Of a stretch of DNA of 64,000 nucleotides, positions 24,246 through 64,000 are shown in pieces. The position numbers and the translations under genes were made by a program. The notes below the pieces were generated by a model. That model was not told where the DNA came from. It saw only the letters and a program-made list of their open reading frames with translations, and searched no databases. Position 1 is the first letter of the stretch. Every line of letters begins with the position of its first letter. Location of the stretch: positions 4,842-68,841 of the forward strand of contig CAMDFL010000001.1 in assembly GCA_945897475.1 (NCBI GenBank), written 5' to 3'. The stretch is from Bordetella parapertussis. GTDB lineage: Bacteria; Pseudomonadota; Gammaproteobacteria; Burkholderiales; SG8-39.

Positions 24246-24265
24246 TTAGACCGCCCTGATACTTA
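24246..24265 (-). repeat. Single copy of the dispersed AGTATCAGAGCGGTCTAA-family repeat
   Basis: The + strand ttagaccgccctgatactta is the reverse complement of TAAGTATCAGGGCGGTCTAA. It lies in the hemA 5' leader/promoter. Confidence 0.7.
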
Positions 24266-27551: not shown

Positions 27552-27639
27552 CCGATTGCCGTGCCAGCGTTAAAATCCCGACAAATTTAGTTGGGTATAA
27601 AGTTCTGTCATAAGATTAATTCGGCAATAGGTTCGGAAG

Positions 27640-27678
27640 TTAATTTCGAATTTAATTCCAAAGATAATTCGAAATTAA
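27640..27678. promoter_or_regulatory. Perfect 13-bp inverted repeat (candidate operator) upstream of grxD
   Basis: TTAATTTCGAATT (27640-27652) and AATTCGAAATTAA (27666-27678) are separated by a 13-nt spacer. The site is 29 nt upstream of the grxD ATG in a very AT-rich gap. Confidence 0.5.
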
Positions 27679-27706
27679 ATTCAAAATCAACCCCTTGGAG
27701 CATTCG

Positions 27707-37425: not shown

Positions 37426-38703
37426 TCAACTATGCCGCGGGGCGAGCGCGCGATGCCCGATGTCGTGGCGGAACTGCATGCCTGGAAAGCGTATTTCATT
37501 GATCACCTGATAGGCGCGCCGCTGCGCCATCTTGATCGATTCACCCAGCGCAGTGACGCACAGCACGCGCCCACCGTCGGTGATGACTTTGCCCTCCTGT
37601 AACACGGTGCCCGCCTGGAATACGTGAAAATCCTCCTCCCCTGCGGGCAGCGTGGCGATGACATCGCCTTTACGTGGCGATTCGGGGTAGCCGTGCGCCG
37701 CCAGCACTACGCCCAGGGCCGCGCGTCTGTCCCACTCGACTTCAGTCGTATCCAACTTGCCTTCTACGGCGCACTCGAACAGTTCGAACAGGTCGCTTTT
37801 CAAGCGCAGCATGATGGGCTGGGTTTCCGGGTCGCCGAGGCGGCAATTGAATTCCAGAACCTTGAGGTCGCCCTTCGAATTGATCATCAGGCCGGCGTAG
37901 AGAAATCCGGAATAAGGCGTTCCCCTGGCGGCCATGCCGTTCATCACCGGTTGGATGACTTCGCGCATCACCCGCGAATGAATCTTGGGTGTGATTACCG
38001 GCGCCGGGGAGTAGGCCCCCATGCCGCCGGTATTGGGACCAAGGTCGCCATCAAGGAGTCGTTTGTGATCCTGGCTGGTGGCCAGCGTCAGAATGTTGCG
38101 GCCATCGCACATGACTATGAAGCTGGCTTCTTCGCCGTCCAGAAATTCCTCAATCACCACACGATTGCCGGCGCTGCCCATGGCATGGTCGATGAGCATC
38201 CAGTCAATGGCCTTATGGGCTTCGCTCAGATTGGACGCTACAACCACGCCTTTTCCCGAGGCCAGTCCGTCGGCTTTGATGACGATGGGCGCGCCCTTCG
38301 ATTCCACGTACGCGTGCGCCGCGGCTGCATCCGAGAAGGCCGCGTACTCCGCCGTGGGAATCCTGTGCTCGGCCATGAAGGTCTTTGCAAACTCCTTGGA
38401 CGCCTCGAGTTGCGCGCAGGCCTGCGATGGTCCGAAGATTCTAAGGCCTCTTGCCTGGAAGGCATCGACGATTCCCGCAGCGAGCGGTGCTTCGGGGCCG
38501 ACCACGGTCAGGTGTATCGGTTCGTTCGCCGCAAAATCCGCAAGCGCCGAGGCATCGGTGATGTCCAGGTTTTTGACGCCGGCCTCGGTGGCGCTGCCGG
38601 CATTGCCAGGGGCGACGAAGACGGTCTGCACACGCGGGCTTTGCGCGAGGCGCCACGCGATGGCGTGCTCGCGCCCACCAGCGCCTATGACCAGAAGTTT
38701 CAT
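37426..38703 (-). CDS. purD: Phosphoribosylamine--glycine ligase
   Basis: 425 aa with '[19 protein letters not shown]', '[14 protein letters not shown]' and '[12 protein letters not shown]'. The start abuts a 20-nt tandem array. Confidence 0.95.
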
Positions 38704-38803
38704 GGTGAGTGCAGAAGTTTCATAGTGAGTGCAGAAGTTTCATGGTGAGTGCAGAAGTTTCATGGTGAGTGCAGAGGTTTCATAGTGAGCGCAGAACTTT
38801 CAT
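38704..38803 (-). repeat. 5 x 20-nt tandem repeat abutting the purD start codon
   Basis: The minus-strand units are ATGAAAGTTCTGCGCTCACT, ATGAAACCTCTGCACTCACC, ATGAAACTTCTGCACTCACC, ATGAAACTTCTGCACTCACT and ATGAAACTTCTGCACTCACC. They are followed by the purD start, ATGAAACTTCTGGTC. Confidence 0.95.
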
Positions 38804-38864
38804 ATCAAACCAGACGTTTCCTGGCGAGCGTGGAATTGTTCAATCAAGTATGAAATCTTAACGA

Positions 38865-40430
38865 TCAATGACGAAAGTGACGCACGCCGGTGAATACCAT
38901 GGCGACGCCCAGTTCGTCGGCCGCGCTAATGACTTCGTTGTCGCGCATGCTGCCGCCGGGCTGGATGATGGCCTTGGCCCCGGCATTGGCCACCACCTCG
39001 ACACCATCCTTGAAAGGGAAAAATGCATCCGAGGCGACCACCGAACCCGCCAGCGACAGGCCAGCGTTTTGCGCCTTGATGGCGGCGATACGCGCACTAT
39101 CCACGCGGCTCATCTGTCCCGCGCCAACGCCTAGTGTTCGCCCCGCAGCGCAAAATACGATGGCATTCGATTTCACGAACTTGGCCACGCGCCAGGCAAA
39201 CAGCAGGTCCTCAAGTTGCAAGGGTGTCGGGGCGATGCGGGTGACCACGCGCAATTCTGAGGCGGCCAGGTTGCGACTATCCGGTGATTGCACCAGCAGG
39301 CCACCGCCTACGCGTTTGAGGTCGTAGGCGGAGAATTCACGGCCGGCGGGAATCACCAGCAGGCGAACATTGGCTTTCGCCGACATGATCTTGCGTGCCG
39401 CATCGTCTATTTCGGGCGCGAGTACAACTTCAACAAACAGTTTGGCCAGCGCTTCGGCGGTAGCGCCATCCACAGGCCGGTTGAACGCGACGATGCCGCC
39501 AAAGGCCGATGTGGGATCGCAGGCGAGCGCCGCCTGGTAGGCATCGATCGAGCGCGCGCCGACTGCCACGCCGCAGGGATTGGCGTGTTTCACAATGACG
39601 CAGGCAGGTCTATCGAATGTTTTGACGCACTCCCAGGCGGCATCGGCATCGGCGATATTGTTGTAGGAGAGTTCCTTGCCTTGTATTTGCGTGTAATCGG
39701 CAATCGCCCCGGCAAAGGGTTTTGATTCGCGATAGAACGCCGCGCTCTGATGGGGGTTTTCCCCATAGCGCATTTCCTGCATTTTCTCGAATTGTAGTGT
39801 GAGTCTATCGGGCCACTCGCGGCGGCCGCCGCTGCCATCGAGACTGGTCAAATAATTGCTGATGGCCGCATCGTAGGCCGCAGTATGGGTATAGACCTTC
39901 TTCGCAAGCTCGAAGCGGCGCTCTGCCCCAAGCGAGCCTTGATTGGCGCGAAGTTCGTCCGTGATCGCGGCATAGTCATCGGGATCGACCACCACCGCGA
40001 CGCCGCGATGATTCTTGGCAGCCGCGCGCAGCATGCTCGGGCCCCCAATGTCGATATTCTCGATCGCCTCCTCCAGGGTGCAATCGGCGCGCGCCACGGT
40101 TTTCTCGAATGGATAAAGATTGACCACCACCAGGTCGATCGGCTCGATCCCGGCATCGCGAATCGCCTGCATGTGGCCGGGCAAATCGCGCCGCGCCAGC
40201 AAGCCCCCATGAATACGTGGATGCAAGGTTTTTACCCTGCCATCGAGCATTTCCGGAAAGCCGGTGTAATCGGAAACCTCGGTCACCGGGATTCCTTCCT
40301 GCGCCAATGCCCTGGCGGTGCCGCCGGTGGACAAAATGGTGACGCCCATGCCAACGAGCGTCCTGGCGAATGCCTCCAAACCGGTTTTGTCCGATACGCT
40401 GATGAGCGCGCGGCGCAGGGTGATGTTCAT
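38865..40430 (-). CDS. purH: Bifunctional AICAR transformylase / IMP cyclohydrolase
   Basis: 521 aa with '[11 protein letters not shown]', '[12 protein letters not shown]', '[12 protein letters not shown]' and the C-terminal 'FTGVRHFRH'. Confidence 0.95.
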
Positions 40431-43053: not shown

Positions 43054-43061
43054 GGTGAAAT

Positions 43062-43103
43062 AAGTATCAGAGCAGTCTAATTAAGTATCAGAGCGGTCTA
43101 ATT
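43062..43103 (+). repeat. 2 x 21-nt tandem copy of the dispersed repeat family
   Basis: aagtatcagagcagtctaatt and aagtatcagagcggtctaatt, between the pepP stop (43125) and the ubiH start (43053). Confidence 0.9.
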
Positions 43104-51949: not shown

Positions 51950-52028
51950 TCCATTCACATATGCTTTTGCCACTGGCACAATTCGATATTCCCGTCATGA
52001 CGGCTGTATCATGAAATGCCGCCGTAAT

Positions 52029-52128
52029 AGGTATCACAGCGGTCTAATAAGTGTCAGAGCGGTCTAATAAGTGCCAGAGGGGTCTAATTAGTATCAGAAG
52101 GGTCTAATAAGTATCAGACGGGTCTAAT
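52029..52128 (+). repeat. 5 x 20-nt tandem array of the dispersed repeat family
   Basis: ggtatcacagcggtctaata, agtgtcagagcggtctaata, agtgccagaggggtctaatt, agtatcagaagggtctaata and agtatcagacgggtctaatc, between rsmA and the 52198 ORF. Confidence 0.95.
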
Positions 52129-52860: not shown

Positions 52861-53000
52861 GCCGGACCCTATCTGGCGCTTGTGATGGGCCGGACCCTAT
52901 CCGGCGCTTGTGATGGTCCGGACCCTGTCCGATGCTTGTCATGGCCCGGACCCTGTCCGGTGCTTGTAATAAACCGGACCTTCTGCGGTGCAGCTGATCA
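52861..53000. repeat. About 5 x 28-nt tandem array, each unit containing a short hairpin
   Basis: The units are gccggaccctatctggcgcttgtgatgg, gccggaccctatccggcgcttgtgatgg, tccggaccctgtccgatgcttgtcatgg, cccggaccctgtccggtgcttgtaataa and a degenerate fifth. GCCGGA...TCCGGC forms a 6-bp stem in unit 2. The array fills the convergent gap 52861-53010. Confidence 0.9.
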
Positions 53001-53010
53001 TGCCTCTTGT

Positions 53011-53880
53011 TCAAAGTTCAGGCAGTTGCCTTCCCAATAAATTGAGTTCGCGACGCGCATCGCGACAATTGGGATAGACGCGGTCGAGGATCGACCAGAA
53101 GCGCGCTGAATGGTTCATCTCCAGCAGGTGCGCGATTTCATGGGCCACCACATAGTCAATTAGATGTGCGGGCATGTGTATCAGGCGCCAGTTAAGGCAA
53201 ACCCTGCCAGAGGCGCTGCAACTTCCCCAGCGCGTGCGTGCATTGGACAGGCGTACCGAGGGTGTTGGCACGCCGAGTCTCGCCGAATATAAATTGACGC
53301 GCTCAGTGCCGGTCAGAAGCATCTTTTCGCGCAACCACGTTTGTACCAGGCTGCGCAACTGTTCGAGGCCGTCGTCGTTGAGGATCCGCGCGACCAGTCT
53401 ATTTTCTTCCATGAGAACCGCTCGCTCTCTGGGTTCCGAGGCGACGCGCCTGATGTCCAGCGAGGCCGGCTGGCCAAACAAGGAAATGCTGTCTCCGTTG
53501 TTCCATTGGAATGCTTCTTTTTTGGAACAGCGGTCTTTCAGGTGCTGCCAAATCCATTTCTCTTTCTCGCGAAGAAATTTTTCGACTTCGCCCACGCCGA
53601 CCCAGCGAGGCGCGCGTACCTCAACGCCGCGGTCGCCGACCAGGATGCCGAGGGTGCGGCGGCGCGCTCGAATCAAGCGATAGCCAAGAACACCACCTTC
53701 GAGGGCGAGCTGTCGTTCTCCGGCGCTCCTCTGCGGCGTGTCGGCGAGTTGCGTGTTGCTTAGCTTCGTGTCGCCGAGTTGCGTGTTGCTTAGCTGCGTT
53801 TCGATTCGCGGCGGGTTAAGGCCAAGTCCCAAAGACAACTGAAACATTTGCAACTGAAACATTTGTTTCAAAAACTTCAT
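53011..53880 (-). CDS. M48/DUF45 (YgjP-like) zinc metallopeptidase-family protein
   Basis: 289 aa with 'YRLIRARRRTLGILV' (DUF45 N-region) and 'VVAHEIAHLLEMNHSARFW' (HExxH...H). The ATG overlaps the plsC stop (ATGA). The N-terminal ~55 aa contain in-frame tandem duplications. Confidence 0.8.
   Translation of the reverse strand: MKFLKQMFQLQMFQLSLGLGLNPPRIETQLSNTQLGDTKLSNTQLADTPQRSAGERQLALEGGVLGYRLIRARRRTLGILVGDRGVEVRAPRWVGVGEVEKFLREKEKWIWQHLKDRCSKKEAFQWNNGDSISLFGQPASLDIRRVASEPRERAVLMEENRLVARILNDDGLEQLRSLVQTWLREKMLLTGTERVNLYSARLGVPTPSVRLSNARTRWGSCSASGRVCLNWRLIHMPAHLIDYVVAHEIAHLLEMNHSARFWSILDRVYPNCRDARRELNLLGRQLPEL
53738..53797 (-). repeat. 2 x 30-nt in-frame tandem duplication inside the M48 gene
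   Basis: gtgtcggcgagttgcgtgttgcttagcttc and gtgtcgccgagttgcgtgttgcttagctgc encode QLSNTQLGDT and KLSNTQLADT. Confidence 0.9.
53836..53865 (-). repeat. 2 x 15-nt in-frame tandem duplication 13 nt after the M48 start codon
   Basis: caactgaaacatttg occurs twice and encodes QMFQL QMFQL. Confidence 0.9.
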
Positions 53881-54644: not shown

Positions 54645-54719
54645 GGCCGATCTGATACTTATGACCGCTCTGATACTTACAGACCGCTCTGATACTTACA
54701 GACCGCTTTGCTACCTATT
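54645..54719 (-). repeat. About 4 x 18-19-nt tandem array of the dispersed repeat family (inverted relative to 52029-52128)
   Basis: The + strand reads ggccgatctgatacttat, gaccgctctgatacttaca, gaccgctctgatacttaca and gaccgctttgctacctatt, the reverse complement of TGTAAGTATCAGAGCGGTC. It lies between the gmhB stop and the plsC start. Confidence 0.9.
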
Positions 54720-58387: not shown

Positions 58388-59926
58388 TCAGGCCGAAGCG
58401 GGCGGGCTTTCGCGCGAAATCGTGCGACGCCGAACAAAAATAAATATTCCCGCAGCGAGCGACATGGCGCAAATGGCCAATGCCAGGTTGTTGCCAACGC
58501 GCACGTAAGGCGTGGCATTGACAAATGGCTGCGCTTTGCCATGCAGCACCCCCTCGGTGAACAGCGGTAATTGCGCGTTCACGTGGCCGCGCTCACTGAT
58601 GATGGCGGTGACACCGGTATTGGTGGCACGCACCATAAAACGTCCAGTCTCGATGGCGCGCATGCGCGAGATCTGCAGGTGTTGCCCGGGAGCAAGAGAG
58701 TCGCCAAACCAGGCAACATTGGACAGGTTCGCGAGCAATGTCGCCTCAGGTAGTTGGGCAATCAGTTCCTCGCCAAAAGCATCCTCATAACAGACTGTGA
58801 CGCCGATGCGCTCACCCGCCGCCAGCAGGGGGCGGGGTCGCAAACCCGGCGAAAAATCCGATAGCGGGATGTGCAACATGGCGACAATCCATTTGAACTC
58901 TGGCGGTACAAACTCACCCAAAGGAACCAGGTGCGATTTTGCGTAGAACTGCAAACCCGAGTGTCCGAGATTGATGACCCCGTTGAAGTAACTGCCGCTG
59001 TTGTTTCGAAATGGCGCGCCTAACAACACATCGCCGCCACGGCGGCGGGCAAGCTCGGTGAGTCCGTCCAGATAGGCCGGATCGACCAGATCGAGAAGCC
59101 TCGGCACGGCGGTCTCTGGCAGCACGATCAATTGCGCGGGACTGGCTTCAATCAGACGCGCGTAAGTCGCCAAGGTCGATGCATAGTGCGCCGGTTCGAA
59201 CTTCAGATTCTGCGGGATATTGCCTTGTATCAATGCCACCGGTACTGGCTCGCCGTGGGCTTTGACCCAATTGATTTCGCGCAATATCGCACCTGAACCA
59301 ATCAGTATCACGGTGATCGCCAGGAGTGTCTGCCGCGTTCGCAGCGGGCCTGCCAGGCAAGCTGCGGCAAGCGATCCTGCGGCGAGCATGCTCGCCAGGG
59401 AAACCCCATAAACGCCCAATAACGGCGCGTATCCTGAAAAGGGCGTGTCGATTTGCGAGTAAGCCACGGAGAGCCAGGGGAATCCGGTCAAAAGCCAGCC
59501 GCGCATCCATTCGGTGAGGACCCACAGTGGCGGCGCCAGCAACGTCGCCCGAACCCATGGTGGGGCCTCAAGGCGCGCCTGCAAGGAACCGGTGAGCGCC
59601 GGAAATAACGCAAGATAGGCGCAAAAAAGCACGGTGGTGGTCGCAGCCAACGGCGCGGGCATCATGCCAAACTGGTGCAGGCTGATGTACACCCAGGAGG
59701 TGCCCGTGCCGAAAAAGCCCGCGCCAAACAAAAATCCATTCAGTGCCGCTTCGCGTGGCGCGGGCGTGCGAAGCCATACAAGAATAAGCGCCGTGAAGCA
59801 CGCGCCGCTCAACCAAGGCAGGCCCGTTGGAGAAAATCCGCTGACCGCGCCCACACCGGCAGCCAAAGCTAGCAGGGCTCGTTGCCAGCGGGTGGCCAGT
59901 ATTCGTTCGGAAATCGCCGCTATCAA
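58388..59926 (-). CDS. lnt: Apolipoprotein N-acyltransferase
   Basis: 512 aa. A polytopic N-terminal half is followed by a nitrilase-like domain with 'VTVCYEDAFGEE' (catalytic Cys) and 'LSNVAWFG'. Confidence 0.9.
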   Translation of the reverse strand: MIAAISERILATRWQRALLALAAGVGAVSGFSPTGLPWLSGACFTALILVWLRTPAPREAALNGFLFGAGFFGTGTSWVYISLHQFGMMPAPLAATTTVLFCAYLALFPALTGSLQARLEAPPWVRATLLAPPLWVLTEWMRGWLLTGFPWLSVAYSQIDTPFSGYAPLLGVYGVSLASMLAAGSLAAACLAGPLRTRQTLLAITVILIGSGAILREINWVKAHGEPVPVALIQGNIPQNLKFEPAHYASTLATYARLIEASPAQLIVLPETAVPRLLDLVDPAYLDGLTELARRRGGDVLLGAPFRNNSGSYFNGVINLGHSGLQFYAKSHLVPLGEFVPPEFKWIVAMLHIPLSDFSPGLRPRPLLAAGERIGVTVCYEDAFGEELIAQLPEATLLANLSNVAWFGDSLAPGQHLQISRMRAIETGRFMVRATNTGVTAIISERGHVNAQLPLFTEGVLHGKAQPFVNATPYVRVGNNLALAICAMSLAAGIFIFVRRRTISRESPPASA

Positions 59927-60753
59927 GCTATTCCGGGAAGCTTTTGCACGGTCAGCAGATGTAGCCGGCGGCTGTCGGCGCGAAGCACCGAAATTCGGAG
60001 ACCCAGAAGAACGGTGGATTCACCTCGCTTGGGCAGGCGGCCAAAACTGTCGATCAGCAATCCGCCGACAGTATCGAATTCCTGGTCCGAAAATGCTGTC
60101 CCGAAAGCCCGATTGAAATCGGCGATCTCGGTTTGCGCCTTGACCCGATACTGCCCGCCGGTTTCGCCGACGATGTTGTCCACGGTTTCGTCGAAATCGT
60201 ATTCGTCCTCAATATCGCCGACGATTTGTTCCAGCACATCCTCGATTGTGATGATGCCGGCAATGCCGCCGTACTCATCGACCACGATGGCCATGTGATT
60301 GCGGTTGGCTCGAAAATCCCGTAGCAATACGTTGAGCGGCTTGGATTCCGGGACGAACACCGCTGGGCGCAGCATTTCGCGCACGCTGAACTCTTCCTCG
60401 CCGGCGTAGTAACGCAACAGATCCTTGGCCAGCAGGACGCCGATGACATTGTCGCGATTTTTATCGATGACAGGAAAGCGCGAGTGCGCGGTTTCAATCA
60501 CAAAGGGAATGAATTTGTCGGGCGTTTCGGCGATGTCGATGACATCCATCTGCGCACGCGGCACCATGATGTCGCGCACCCGCATCTCCGAGACCTGCAT
60601 CACCCCTTCGGTCATCGACAGCGCGTCAGCATCCAGAAGGTCGCGTTCGTGCGCTGAGCGCAATAATTCCAGCAATTGCTTGCGATCCTGCGGCTCACGC
60701 ATCAGCATCGCCGAGAGCCGCTCCAAAAGAGAGGGTTTGTCGCTGTCGTTCAT
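59923..60753 (-). CDS. corC: HlyC/CorC-family transporter-associated protein (CBS pair + CorC_HlyC domain)
   Basis: 276 aa with 'VRDIMVPRAQM' and 'HMAIVVDEYGGIAGIITIEDVLEQIVGDIEDE'. It follows ybeY, as in ybeZ-ybeY-corC-lnt. Confidence 0.9.
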   Translation of the reverse strand: MNDSDKPSLLERLSAMLMREPQDRKQLLELLRSAHERDLLDADALSMTEGVMQVSEMRVRDIMVPRAQMDVIDIAETPDKFIPFVIETAHSRFPVIDKNRDNVIGVLLAKDLLRYYAGEEEFSVREMLRPAVFVPESKPLNVLLRDFRANRNHMAIVVDEYGGIAGIITIEDVLEQIVGDIEDEYDFDETVDNIVGETGGQYRVKAQTEIADFNRAFGTAFSDQEFDTVGGLLIDSFGRLPKRGESTVLLGLRISVLRADSRRLHLLTVQKLPGIA

Positions 60754-60795
60754 AGTCTATGGTTCACGGTCTATGTTCTACGGTCTATGTTTCAC
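60754..60795 (-). repeat. 3 x 14-nt tandem repeat abutting the corC start codon
   Basis: The minus-strand units are GTGAAACATAGACC, GTAGAACATAGACC and GTGAACCATAGACT, followed by the corC start ATGAACGAC. Confidence 0.9.
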
Positions 60796-60818
60796 GGAAT
60801 ATTGGTTTGGCATGCGGC

Positions 60819-61274
60819 TCACAGATACGGATCGGGAAATCCCAGTATGCGCAGAATGCGCCTTTCACGGTTTTCCATGAGGTGGGCAGCTGCGCTGGTA
60901 TTGTGATCATAACCACGCAAATGCAGCACGCCATGCACCGTCAGATGCGCGTAATGAGCAGCAATCGTTTTTTGCTGTTCGCGCGCTTCGCGAGAGACCA
61001 CCGACGCGCACAAAACAACGTCGCCGCAGGTTTTTCGCCCCGTTTCGTACGCGAAGGAAAGCACATTGGTGGCGTAGTCCTTGCTGCGGTAACGGCGGTT
61101 GAGCGCGCGCGCCTCCCTTCCATCAACGACTCGTACGGTGATTTCGGCACGCGAACCAAGGGCCGCAAGCGCCCAGCTGCGCAGCTTAGCGCCGGGCGGA
61201 ACTCCTTGCGCGCGGGCAGCTATTTGCACGCATACATTCTGCAGGCTTGCATTCGCGCCCGATGATGACTTCAT
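60819..61274 (-). CDS. ybeY: rRNA maturation endoribonuclease YbeY
   Basis: 151 aa with 'HLTVHGVLHLRGYDH' (H-x3-H-x5-H zinc motif). Confidence 0.88.
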   Translation of the reverse strand: MKSSSGANASLQNVCVQIAARAQGVPPGAKLRSWALAALGSRAEITVRVVDGREARALNRRYRSKDYATNVLSFAYETGRKTCGDVVLCASVVSREAREQQKTIAAHYAHLTVHGVLHLRGYDHNTSAAAHLMENRERRILRILGFPDPYL

Positions 61275-62266
61275 TGCGCTGGCTTCAGGTCGTCACTTTC
61301 GTAGGCGTCGACAATACGTTGCACCAGTGGGTGGCGCACCACGTCTTTCGAGGTGAAGGTCGAGAAGGCAATGCCGCGGACATCCGCCAATACCTTGCGG
61401 GCATTGGCAAGGCCGCTTAGATGGCCGCGCGGCAAATCGACCTGGGTCACGTCGCCGTTGACTACGACTTTGGAGCCAAATCCGATTCGGGTGAGAAACA
61501 TTTTCATCTGTTCGGGCGTGGTGTTCTGCGCCTCGTCCAGAATAATGAAGGAATGATTGAGGGTGCGTCCACGCATGTAGGCCAGAGGCGCGAGTTCTAT
61601 GGCGGCACGTTCAAACAGCTTGCCCACCTTGTCGAATCCCAGCAGGTCGTACAGCGCATCGTACAAAGGCCTTAGATAGGGATCGACTTTCTGCGCGAGA
61701 TCTCCAGGAAGAAATCCCAGCCGCTCTCCGGCTTCCACCGCGGGTCGCACCAGCACGATGCGTTTGACCGTATCGCGCTCCAGAGCGTCCACGGCGCATG
61801 CGACCGCCAGATAGGTTTTGCCGGTGCCGGCGGGCCCGATGGCGAAGGTAATGTCGTTGGCGAGGATGGCCCTCAAGTAGGCGCGCTGATTGGGTGTTCG
61901 GCCTCTCAGGTCGGGTTTGCGGGTGGCCAGTATGGGCGCCTTGGGCTCATCGGCTGGCGTGTCTTCGCGCGCCTCGACCAGAGAGAGTTGAATAGCCTCA
62001 ACGGTCAGCGCACGCGAGCATTCGCCATAGAATTGCTTCAGCGCTTGTGCGGCCCTGGCCGTATTCGCCGCATCTCCCCGCAGGGAAAAATTTTCGCCGC
62101 GCCGCGCGATGCTCACATCCATGGCGCTCTCGATCTGCCTGAGATTTTCGTCCATCACGCCGCAAAGATTGGCCAGACGCGGGTTGTCGACCGGGGAGAA
62201 TTGAAGTTCGACAGGTGCTTGCTTCCTATCGACATCTGTACGCTTCATATCGACTGAACGCTTCAT
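61271..62266 (-). CDS. ybeZ: PhoH-like ATPase
   Basis: 331 aa with '[15 protein letters not shown]' (Walker A) and 'FIILDEAQN' (Walker B). The start region is tandemly duplicated, so the true start may be 62266 or 62248. Confidence 0.9.
62231..62266 (-). repeat. 18-nt-spaced duplication of the ybeZ (phoH-like) start region
   Basis: On the minus strand GATATGAAGCGT occurs twice, 18 nt apart and in frame, giving [13 protein letters not shown]. The first ATG overlaps the miaB stop (ATGA). Confidence 0.85.
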
Positions 62267-63609
62267 ATCGCGACCGCCGCCGCGGAGCTCAACTCCCCGC
62301 GCAGGGTGTGGCGTCTGGCCTCTGTGATTCGCACCGGCTCGAAGCGCCCGATGAGCGCCGCATCGCCTGGAAAATTGACAGTTCGATTGTTGCTAGTCCG
62401 CCCGGTGAGCTCCCCAGGGTCTTTTGCCGAGCGCGATTCGATCAATAACAACTGCGTGCCGCCGACCATGCGCTCGCTAATGGCCATTTCAAGCTGGTCC
62501 TGTGTTTTCTGCAATCGATACAAGCGTTCGAGTTTTTGCTGATGTGGCGTAGCGTCGTCAAGTGAGGCGGCGGGAGTGCCGGGCCGCGGGCTGTAGAGGA
62601 AGGAGTAGGAGGTGTCAAAGCCAATGTCCTCGACCAGCGCCAAGGTGGCGTCGAAATCCGCTTCGGATTCACCTGGAAATCCAACGATGATATCCGTTCC
62701 GATGGAAATATCGGGTCGCGCGGCGCGCAGGCGCCGAACGATCGATTTGTACTCGAGCGTGGTGTAGCCGCGTTTCATGGCGGCAAGTATGCGGTCGCAG
62801 CCTGATTGGATAGGCAGATGCACGTGGGCGGCGAGTTTTCCTATGCGGGCGTGGGCGTCTATCAAGCGCGGCGTGACATCGCGGGGGTGCGATGTGAAGT
62901 AGCGGATCCTGTCGATACCCGGAATCTCGGCAACGTGTTCAAGTAACAGTGTGAAATCGCACTGTTCCGTGGTGTGGGAGGAATGGTCGCGATAGGCATT
63001 CACGTTTTGCCCGAGCAGCGTGATCTCTTTGACCCCGCTTATCGCCAGCGCCGCGATCTCATCGAGCACGTCGGGAAGCGGTCGCGATACTTCCTCGCCT
63101 CGCGTATAGGGGACGACGCAGAAGCTGCAATATTTACTGCATCCTTCCATGATCGAGACAAATGCCGTGGGTCCGGTGGTGCGAGGCGCAGGCAAATGGT
63201 CGAATTTTTCGATTTCTGGAAAGGAAATGTCGATTTGCGATTTGCCCGAACTGCGTCGCGCAGCGAGGAGGGCCGGCAAACGATGCAGTGTCTGCGGACC
63301 AAATACGACATCGACAAACGGAGCGCGCCGAACGATGTTTCCACCTTCCTGGCTGGCGACACAACCGCCGACGCCTATCAACAAATTCGGATTGGCCCGT
63401 TTCAAGTCGCGCACGCGACCCAGATCGTGAAATACTCTTTCCTGCGCACGCTCGCGCACCGAGCAAGTGTTGAAAAGGATCAGATCGGCGTCCTCGGGCC
63501 GGTCGGTCCGCTCGTAGCCTTCCGCCTCATATAGCACGTCGGCCATCTTGTCCGAGTCGTACTCGTTCATTTGACAACCGAAGGTGCGAAGAAATAGTTT
63601 CTTGGTCAT
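62263..63609 (-). CDS. miaB: tRNA-2-methylthio-N6-dimethylallyladenosine synthase
   Basis: 448 aa with '[11 protein letters not shown]' (UPF0004 cluster), '[16 protein letters not shown]' (radical-SAM CxxxCxxC) and a C-terminal TRAM domain. Confidence 0.95.
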
Positions 63610-63650: not shown

Positions 63651-63710
63651 TTGGATTTTCAACGCAATCATTGAAATTTCAAAGCAATCATTGAAGTTTC
63701 AACGCAATCA
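63651..63710 (-). repeat. 3 x 20-nt tandem repeat between the upstream gene's stop and miaB
   Basis: The minus-strand units are TGATTGCGTTGAAACTTCAA, TGATTGCTTTGAAATTTCAA and TGATTGCGTTGAAAATCCAA. They start directly after the TAA at 63711-63713. Confidence 0.95.
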
Positions 63711-64000
63711 TTAGCGTCGCGGCCTCTGTCTGGCGGCTTCCTCGGGAGTGATTAGCCAGGCGCGGGCGACTTGCCCGGCGATATCAAGCTGAAACTCCGC
63801 CAGCGCCCCGCCAGGTGGCAAAGAGGCGGGAACCACGATGAAATTTCGCTGGTCTCGGATAGTGCCACCTGGCGCCATCTGAATCGGCCTCTCGTCAATG
63901 GCAATAAGGTTTTCCTGGACATGTCGCAACCAACCGCGCTGCACGTCCTCTGGAATAAGTCGCAGTTGCGCCCAGGCGCTGTTGGCGAGGCATAGTGCGA
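63711..64000 (-). CDS. Hypothetical protein, 3' end only (reading frame stays open to the window edge)
   Basis: The frame of the listed 63711-63944 ORF has no stop codon between 63945 and 64000, so the gene probably starts beyond the window. I recognise no motif. Confidence 0.4.
   Translation of the reverse strand, partial: ALCLANSAWAQLRLIPEDVQRGWLRHVQENLIAIDERPIQMAPGGTIRDQRNFIVVPASLPPGGALAEFQLDIAGQVARAWLITPEEAARQRPRR

Follow-up and report, generated by a model that had tools for sequence, protein, structure and literature searches.

Strain-variable copies of the purD start region in an uncultured betaproteobacterium and their possible role in translation

Why is the start codon of a purine biosynthesis gene preceded by a row of near-copies of itself? 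The question is raised by purD, encoding phosphoribosylamine-glycine ligase, in the 64-kb stretch of DNA that we analyzed (hereafter the window). The host is an uncultured betaproteobacterial species, with uncultured Betaproteobacteria/Burkholderiales as its nearest relatives. Directly before the purD ATG (38703), five 20-nt units occupy positions 38803-38704 of the minus strand, in the order ATGAAAGTTCTGCGCTCACT, ATGAAACCTCTGCACTCACC, ATGAAACTTCTGCACTCACC, ATGAAACTTCTGCACTCACT and ATGAAACTTCTGCACTCACC, followed by ATGAAACTTCTG GTC..., the purD start. As a comparison of strains and relatives shows, the array varies in length and grew from a short upstream open reading frame (uORF) of an ancestor; it probably leaves purD expression largely undisturbed.

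The array and its variation between strains

Tandem Repeats Finder detected 38692-38803 as a single array with period 20, 5.6 copies, 92% matches and no indels; its score of 189 is the highest of all arrays in the window. After unit 5, the minus strand reads ATGAAACTTCTGGTC..., opening the 425-aa open reading frame (ORF) 37426-38703. Twelve of the 20 nt of the unit are the purD start, and every internal unit, from -20 to +12, is identical or nearly identical to the authentic initiation region. The unit junction CTGCACTCACCATGAAAC occurred five times with at most three mismatches (0.07 expected), always at the purD locus, and no copy of the unit was found elsewhere in the window. As in bacterial minisatellites, also called variable-number tandem repeats (VNTRs), a unit in the ~10-100 bp range is repeated head to tail at a locus that is unique within the window.

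Each unit of the window allele reads as a 7-codon mini-ORF (MKVLRSL, MKPLHSP, MKLLHSP, MKLLHSL, MKLLHSP) closed by a TGA that overlaps the next ATG (ATGA). An earlier sequence-only reading had described the five units before the purD ATG, and these peptides and overlaps, exactly as we find them. It had also pointed out that the starts lack a Shine-Dalgarno (SD) sequence; the sole SD-like motif in the spacer and array is AGGA at 38822-38819, 15 nt ahead of the first ATG. The locus, which lies in the minus-strand cluster dusB-fis-purH-purD-hemF (NCBIfam), is composed as follows.

38865..40430, minus strand: purH (AICAR formyltransferase / IMP cyclohydrolase), NF002049, 788 bits; stop codon TGA at 38867-38865
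38804..38864, minus strand: purH-purD spacer, 61 nt, with the small hairpin CCAG-N7-CTGG (38824-38810)
38784..38803, minus strand: unit 1, 7-codon uORF (MKVLRSL in the window allele), with homologous single units in the relatives L042 and L047/L048
38704..38783, minus strand: units 2-5, ATGAAAC[T/C]TCTGCACTCAC[T/C], species-specific amplified mini-ORFs
38692..38703, minus strand: final partial repeat ATGAAACTTCTG, the authentic purD codons 1-4 (MKLL), its ATG overlapped by the TGA of unit 5
37426..38703, minus strand: purD (phosphoribosylamine-glycine ligase), 425 aa, TIGR00877, 557 bits, E 2e-167

The identical PurD protein is encoded on 7 additional contigs. Alleles were collected from public assemblies through the exact PurD protein and the members of its 90% cluster, giving 20 scored alleles: the window and 19 other samples or metagenome-assembled genomes (MAGs), from ENA megahit contigs and two NCBI MAGs. 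An additional, incomplete Logan contig also carries the array, and a scan of JGI metagenomes yielded few additional close relatives.

The number of units varied from 2 to 8 (2 units in five alleles, 3 in seven, 4 in three, 5 in three, 6 in one and 8 in one), and 14 distinct haplotypes were found among the 20 alleles. The flanking 4 kb differ by only 6-26 single-nucleotide polymorphisms (SNPs) between strains, and PurD is 99-100% identical. The closest pair, the window and L027, is separated by 6 SNPs and one inserted unit, which is a clean slippage step. Copy number is thus variable between strains whose flanks are conserved, which makes the purD array a hypervariable minisatellite, or VNTR, restricted to a single uncultured species of the Betaproteobacteria. 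The sequence-only reading had proposed copy-number change by slipped-strand mispairing, to be looked for as polymorphism in related strains; such polymorphism is present, and copy-number change is a mutational fact at this locus.

All 72 units in the 20 alleles are exactly 20 nt long and start with ATGA. Within the units, variation is confined to positions 7, 8, 11 and 20; position 14 is fixed, yet is G in unit 1 and A in later units. Unit 1 is always the first and most divergent, with a CGCTCAC tail (…CGCTCAC[C/T]) and G or A at position 7. The last unit ends in …CACC in all alleles, the final partial repeat is likewise invariant, and ten different peptides are encoded among the units. The purH-purD spacer is 61 nt long in every allele, in five variants that are 1-2 SNPs apart.

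Could the differences in copy number come from collapse or expansion of the repeat during short-read assembly? Most of the contigs are megahit k141 short-read assemblies, and the 8-unit array (172 nt) exceeds k. Arrays of 2-6 units (52-132 nt) fit with their flanks into one 141-mer, however, and what distinguishes the alleles is the order of the unit variants as well as their number, so that such an artefact is barely credible. In addition, independent sources concur (the ENA contigs and the two NCBI MAGs), and neighbouring arrays vary independently on the same contigs.

On/off phase variation, which had been offered together with the slippage proposal, is excluded. All 20 alleles keep purD intact, the true ATG follows the array, and every mini-ORF is closed. 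Slipped-strand mispairing and a location close to a gene's 5' end are common to the array and the contingency repeats of Haemophilus and Neisseria. Those repeats, however, have units of 1-8 nt and switch their genes on and off through frameshifts or promoter spacing, whereas repeat number does not switch purD in this way, no purD allele is disrupted and purD is a biosynthetic housekeeping gene.

Origin from an ancestral upstream open reading frame

Reference genomes with PurD 82-88% identical have no array, and their spacers are short. A protein search gave a closer relative, L042, with 93% identity. The region upstream of purD in this and other relatives reads as follows.

L042, PurD 93% identical: gat ATGAATGCTCCGCGCTCCCC upstream of the purD ATG; one 20-nt unit, MNAPRSP*, with ATGA overlap
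L047/L048, PurD 87% identical: ATGAAAGCTCCACGCCCATC upstream of the purD ATG; one 20-nt unit, MKAPRPS*, with ATGA overlap
L008/L049, PurD 87-88% identical: homologous segment with ACG in place of ATG; uORF start lost
L009, PurD 85% identical: 17-nt uORF upstream of purD, MKRYSI*, with ATGA overlap
L010, PurD 82% identical: purH TGA, then cc, then the purD ATG; no uORF, direct junction

More distant relatives have nothing comparable upstream of purD, and units 2 onward were not found in the sister species examined. Because sister species carry exactly one such unit, unit 1 is, on this comparison, the ancestral 7-codon uORF, common to sister species and predating the expansion. Units 2 onward, numbering 1 to 7 per strain, are by the same comparison a young, species-specific expansion. 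The sequence-only reading had considered a neutral duplication scar; this is partly right, units 2 onward being a young expansion and unit 1 the older uORF shared with the sister species. A stop codon overlapping the downstream start as AUGA, the mark of a coupled uORF, is found in all 72 units as well as in L042, L047/L048 and L009.

Some alleles of unit 1, for example ATGAAAGCTCCGCGCTCACC, are still near the L042 and L047 versions. Others, including that of the window, have T at positions 8, 11 and 20, which would fit a partial conversion to the consensus of the internal units. The starts of the uORF and of purD, at a distance of 20 nt, have ATGAAA..TC.G in common and form an imperfect direct repeat. 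This repeat was the substrate from which the array arose: replication slippage or unequal exchange between the two starts produced chimeric units, and the same process later expanded and contracted the array to 2-8 units. The internal unit is chimeric, with a purD-like first 12 nt and uORF-like last 8 nt. We also considered the 3' end of purH as the source of the 8-nt tail, which resembles CACTGACC in L010; this idea was dropped, since L042 and L047 show that the tail is the 3' part of the ancestral uORF.

Possible translation of the array

Most genes of this organism initiate without an SD sequence. An SD duplex of -3.5 kcal/mol or stronger was found in only about 9 of the 26 database-called genes of the species, and purD is without one. 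The missing SD at the array, correctly noted in the sequence-only reading, is for this reason a weaker point than it was presented to be. According to the gene tables, 8 of the 21 junctions between co-directional genes are ATGA-type overlaps of 4 nt; ATGA coupling is therefore the usual operon joint of the organism.

The array RNA is essentially unstructured. Its minimum free energy is -4.4 kcal/mol over 112 nt (z = +2.15), weaker than in 197 of 200 shuffled sequences. With 0 or 3-8 units, the purD AUG has a modelled accessibility of 0.52-0.55; with 1-2 units the value is slightly lower, a dip within the noise of the model. For all six AUGs of the window allele, the modelled values are 0.41-0.58. 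In this model, every AUG of the array looks as accessible as that of purD and able to initiate alone.

Several regulatory elements were considered and rejected. A structural switch set by unit number does not agree with an accessibility that stays flat for the purD AUG at 0 and 3-8 units. A leader-peptide attenuator is contradicted by ten different unit peptides, by the absence of a predicted minus-strand terminator in the purH-purD spacer and by the unstructured RNA. A known RNA family, such as a purine riboswitch, was rejected since no Rfam covariance model matched at the gathering threshold in the whole window, nor at E <= 1 in 38550-39000.

A role at the DNA or RNA level, with the units as iterated regulator sites or as a structured RNA element and the mini-ORFs incidental, would have parallels in the window, where other arrays resemble binding sites (a palindromic 20-nt unit before miaB and the AAGTATCAGAGCGGTC family at four loci). 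The purD unit, however, has no internal symmetry and is confined within the window to the purD locus, and 12 of its 20 nt are simply the purD start. Sister species have one unit or none, the RNA is less structured than nearly all of its shuffles, and Rfam gave no match even at the permissive threshold. We consider a role of this kind very improbable.

Could ribosomes finishing purH be passed unit by unit to purD, making purD dependent on purH translation? The two genes are co-oriented, neither a promoter nor a minus-strand terminator was predicted in the spacer between them, and purD has no SD. In L010, the purH stop and the purD start are 2 nt apart (TGAccATG), suggesting direct coupling in that relative. 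In the species studied here, the purH stop lies 61 nt from the first ATG in every allele. Coupling loses efficiency as the spacing grows and is only weak in vivo at about 70 nt (PMC12548453); a gap of 61 nt therefore makes a relay from purH very unlikely. Furthermore, the units are unstructured and accessible in the model, so that fresh initiation would need no help from purH, and initiation without SD is common in this genome. The relay suggested by the sequence-only reading stays plausible within the array, with a geometry that recurs at corC (see below), and becomes unlikely where it was to start from purH.

The explanation of the locus as a whole that we favour, with moderate confidence, is a uORF-derived VNTR with initiation on any unit, reinitiation leading to purD and buffering against changes in copy number. 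We infer its three functional steps as follows. Each unit is a full copy of the purD initiation region on unstructured RNA, in an organism that rarely uses SD sequences. Ribosomes probably start on any unit, translate seven codons and terminate at the UGA of AUGA. The terminated ribosomes would reinitiate one base upstream, and successive -4 overlaps would lead them to the purD AUG. Both coupling at a spacing of -4 in the absence of an SD and the delivery of ribosomes by short ORFs have been described (PMC12548453).

The geometry follows from the repeat itself: with a period of 20 (2 mod 3) and a second codon beginning with A, each start copy begins an ORF of seven codons whose end falls exactly on the next ATG. 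A change in copy number would never frameshift or extend purD, nor would it bury the purD start. A ribosome footprint is about 30 nt, more than one unit. For this reason, only the nearest units would compete with or feed the true start, and the effect of additional units should therefore saturate. The effect on PurD level is probably modest and saturating, with no on/off switch. Buffered in this way against copy-number change, purD could tolerate a hypermutable repeat, which may persist before an important gene.

Several points weigh against this explanation. The ATGA closure is automatic given the period and the second codon and is no evidence of selection; the closure was seen correctly in the sequence-only reading, but it is an outcome expected about one time in three once the second codon begins with A. 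That the five variable positions miss the four ATGA positions has a chance of ~0.28 and is not significant for selection on ATG or TGA. The invariant C at -1 in the last unit may reflect selection at the true start or merely the stability of an edge unit. The uORF is not kept everywhere: L008/L049 have ACG, so that purD translation can dispense with it in at least some lineages. For this uncultured organism, initiation at the upstream AUGs and efficient reinitiation are predictions. Short-read assemblies give one dominant allele per sample, keeping heterogeneity within populations out of view, and the count of 8 units is less secure, the 172-nt allele being longer than the k-mer of 141.

A full-text literature search found no direct description of serial start-codon duplications. 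The sequence-only reading was not aware of any; the closest precedents are two kinds of junction repeat in M. tuberculosis, the MIRUs (mycobacterial interspersed repetitive units) and VNTR3239. MIRU units stand in tandem at operon junctions, with ORFs coupled to the downstream start at -4, a coupling that probably keeps their effect on expression small (PMC12548453, after Supply et al. 1997; PMC3184786). Like the MIRUs (e.g., at senX3-regX3), the purD array has tandem units between apparently co-transcribed genes, a strain-variable copy number and a co-oriented short ORF in each unit at -4 spacing (ATGA) to the downstream start. Unlike the 40-100 bp MIRUs, which are dispersed over ~40 loci, apparently mobile and restricted to Mycobacterium, the purD unit has 20 nt, belongs to one of the Betaproteobacteria and is locus-specific, with no copy elsewhere in the window. 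It is also built from the gene's own start codon and a pre-existing uORF, and its ORFs overlap a neighbouring gene at the downstream end only (ATGA with purD), the upstream end lying 61 nt from the purH stop.

VNTR3239 (ETR-F), between rnc and fpg1 of M. tuberculosis, starts 40 bp downstream of the rnc stop and reaches as far as the fpg1 start codon. It is strain-variable, is absent from related species, where the spacer is a few bp, and its length correlates with expression (PMC2734929). Both arrays lie within an operon, begin some tens of bp past the preceding stop codon, end at the start codon of a downstream housekeeping gene, vary between strains and are missing from related species. VNTR3239 differs in its complex units of 55 and 79 bp and its reported effect at the mRNA level, and no start-codon chain has been described for it. 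By analogy, the purD array would work like the MIRUs and VNTR3239, yet it is not a member of the MIRU family.

Coupled short uORFs with AUGA overlap are a third relative in kind. Their stop overlaps the start of a gene without SD, and they are thought to deliver ribosomes to it by termination-reinitiation, a description that fits the single unit of the sister species and each step of the array (PMC12548453). The known coupled uORFs are single, whereas the purD coupler is serially duplicated and variable in number.

A minisatellite-rich genome

Counting arrays of period >=10 and score >=60, we found 11 in the window (17 per 100 kb) and one in 164 kb (0.6 per 100 kb) at the purD loci of other taxa, sister species included. 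The window thus has ~28 times the minisatellite density of these loci. Between 50 and 64 kb of the window, all arrays examined vary in length between strains; the exception is a duplication of 18 nt where phoH begins. The array at purD is one example of this general mutational propensity.

This bears on the idea that copy number is an adaptive rheostat, a selected, heritable gain control of purine synthesis set by slippage, in which an added unit would be either an additional entry site (more PurD) or a lossy reinitiation step (less PurD). Copy numbers from 2 to 8 in many haplotypes among closely related strains would suit such a control, as would the M. tuberculosis rnc-fpg1 VNTR, which ends at a start codon and whose length is correlated with fpg1 mRNA (PMC2734929), and several other leaders and starts in this genome vary too. 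The arrays of unrelated genes and an array in a 3' convergent region are, however, equally variable, pointing to the general propensity and not to selection at this locus. Between 3 and 8 units, no change is predicted in how accessible the purD start is, and stochastic tuning has no obvious benefit for a housekeeping gene such as purD. Selected gain control is in our judgment unlikely, and we retain the buffered, uORF-derived VNTR.

Other arrays also touch start codons. Upstream of a corC-like gene (59923-60753, minus strand), the 14-nt array CGTGAAACATAGAC at 60755-60797 ends 1 nt before the corC ATG, with 3 units in the window and 4 in other strains (e.g., L032 9943-10006). The extra unit CATGAACCATAGAC has its own ATG and reads ATG AAC CAT AGA CTA TGA, closing on the corC ATG. 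Units with ATG or GTG close on the next start as ATGA, and the period is again 2 mod 3; judged by its sequence, this array is a second mini-ORF relay with such a period in the same genome.

At the minus-strand junction of miaB (62263-63609) and phoH (61271-62266), an 18-nt tandem duplication TCGATATGAAGCGTTCAG (62236-62270, 1.9 copies) covers the ATGA in which the stop of miaB overlaps the start of phoH; being in frame, it gives phoH two candidate start codons. A YgjP-like gene (53011-53880, minus strand) has N-terminal in-frame repeats at 53736-53865 (15 nt x2, MFQLQ/MFQLS, and 30 nt x2.3), and its protein has 289 or 294 aa depending on the strain. At the apaG start, which lies past the window end at 64000 (L032-L040, about 2040-2110), 20-nt repeats of the ribosome-binding region, CATCATGAGGCGTCTTTAGC, contain GAGG and are present in 2 or 3 copies between strains; in L034, apaG carries an 18-nt in-frame start duplication (MKLWGV-MKLASA).

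The five start-codon arrays (periods 20, 14, 18, 18 and 15) have periods of 0 or 2 mod 3 and none of 1 mod 3, which is not significant ((2/3)^5 = 0.13). The absence of 1 mod 3 periods would fit a translational filter and is only suggestive.

Further arrays lie away from start codons. A dispersed unit with the core AAGTATCAGAGCGGTC has 12 matches with at most three mismatches in the window (0.28 expected), at 24249-24264, 43061-43103, 52025-52128 and 54645-54716; it forms 19-21 nt tandem arrays at three loci, each upstream of a gene, and one solitary copy. Copy number depends strongly on the strain: the 52025 array has 4.2-7.2 copies, and the leader of an acyltransferase gene has anything between none detected and 4.4. 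The unit may serve as a binding site for a regulator or be a small mobile repeat. Membership of the purD unit in this family was rejected; only about 9 of 14 positions match by eye, and the purD unit has no copy in the window outside its own locus.

About 48 nt upstream of miaB (63657-63712, minus strand), the 20-nt unit TTTCAATGATTGCGTTGAAA with the internal inverted repeat TTTCAA..TTGAAA has 2.8 copies here and as many as 4.8 in further strains; it resembles an operator. Between the 3' ends of convergent genes, a 28-nt array (52861-52991) has 3.7-4.6 copies between strains, and each of its units contains the hairpin-like CCGGACCCTATCCGG. An AT-rich 24 nt x2.1 repeat at 27636-27686, about 20 nt upstream of a plus-strand gene start with a GGAG SD, is probably a promoter or operator region.

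A more far-reaching proposal is that duplications of initiation regions are selected, genome-wide, as strain-specific gain controls for the SD-less genes of this lineage. We regard this as quite improbable. If it were true, the -4-coupled mini-ORF chains of purD and corC would be ribosome loading tracks of variable length, the high rate of minisatellite formation would supply the variation for such controls, and the logic of contingency loci would operate quantitatively in the housekeeping operons of a free-living environmental bacterium.

For work on this organism, the polymorphic minisatellites are ready markers for strain typing of an uncultured bacterium in metagenomes, and they mark sites where short-read assemblies and gene callers can misplace start codons. 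The purD locus offers a natural allelic series of serial AUGA-coupled mini-ORFs before an SD-less gene, with one unit in sister species and 2-8 here, resembling a construct for measuring the efficiency of reinitiation per step and for comparing models of 70S scanning and fresh initiation. At a start codon, the only periods able to survive would be those of 0 mod 3 and, where the second codon begins with A, those of 2 mod 3.

Taken together, the comparison of strains and sister species suggests a birth mechanism in which a repeat can arise from a uORF resembling the start of its own gene, and the resulting purD array is also a sign of an unusually minisatellite-rich genome.

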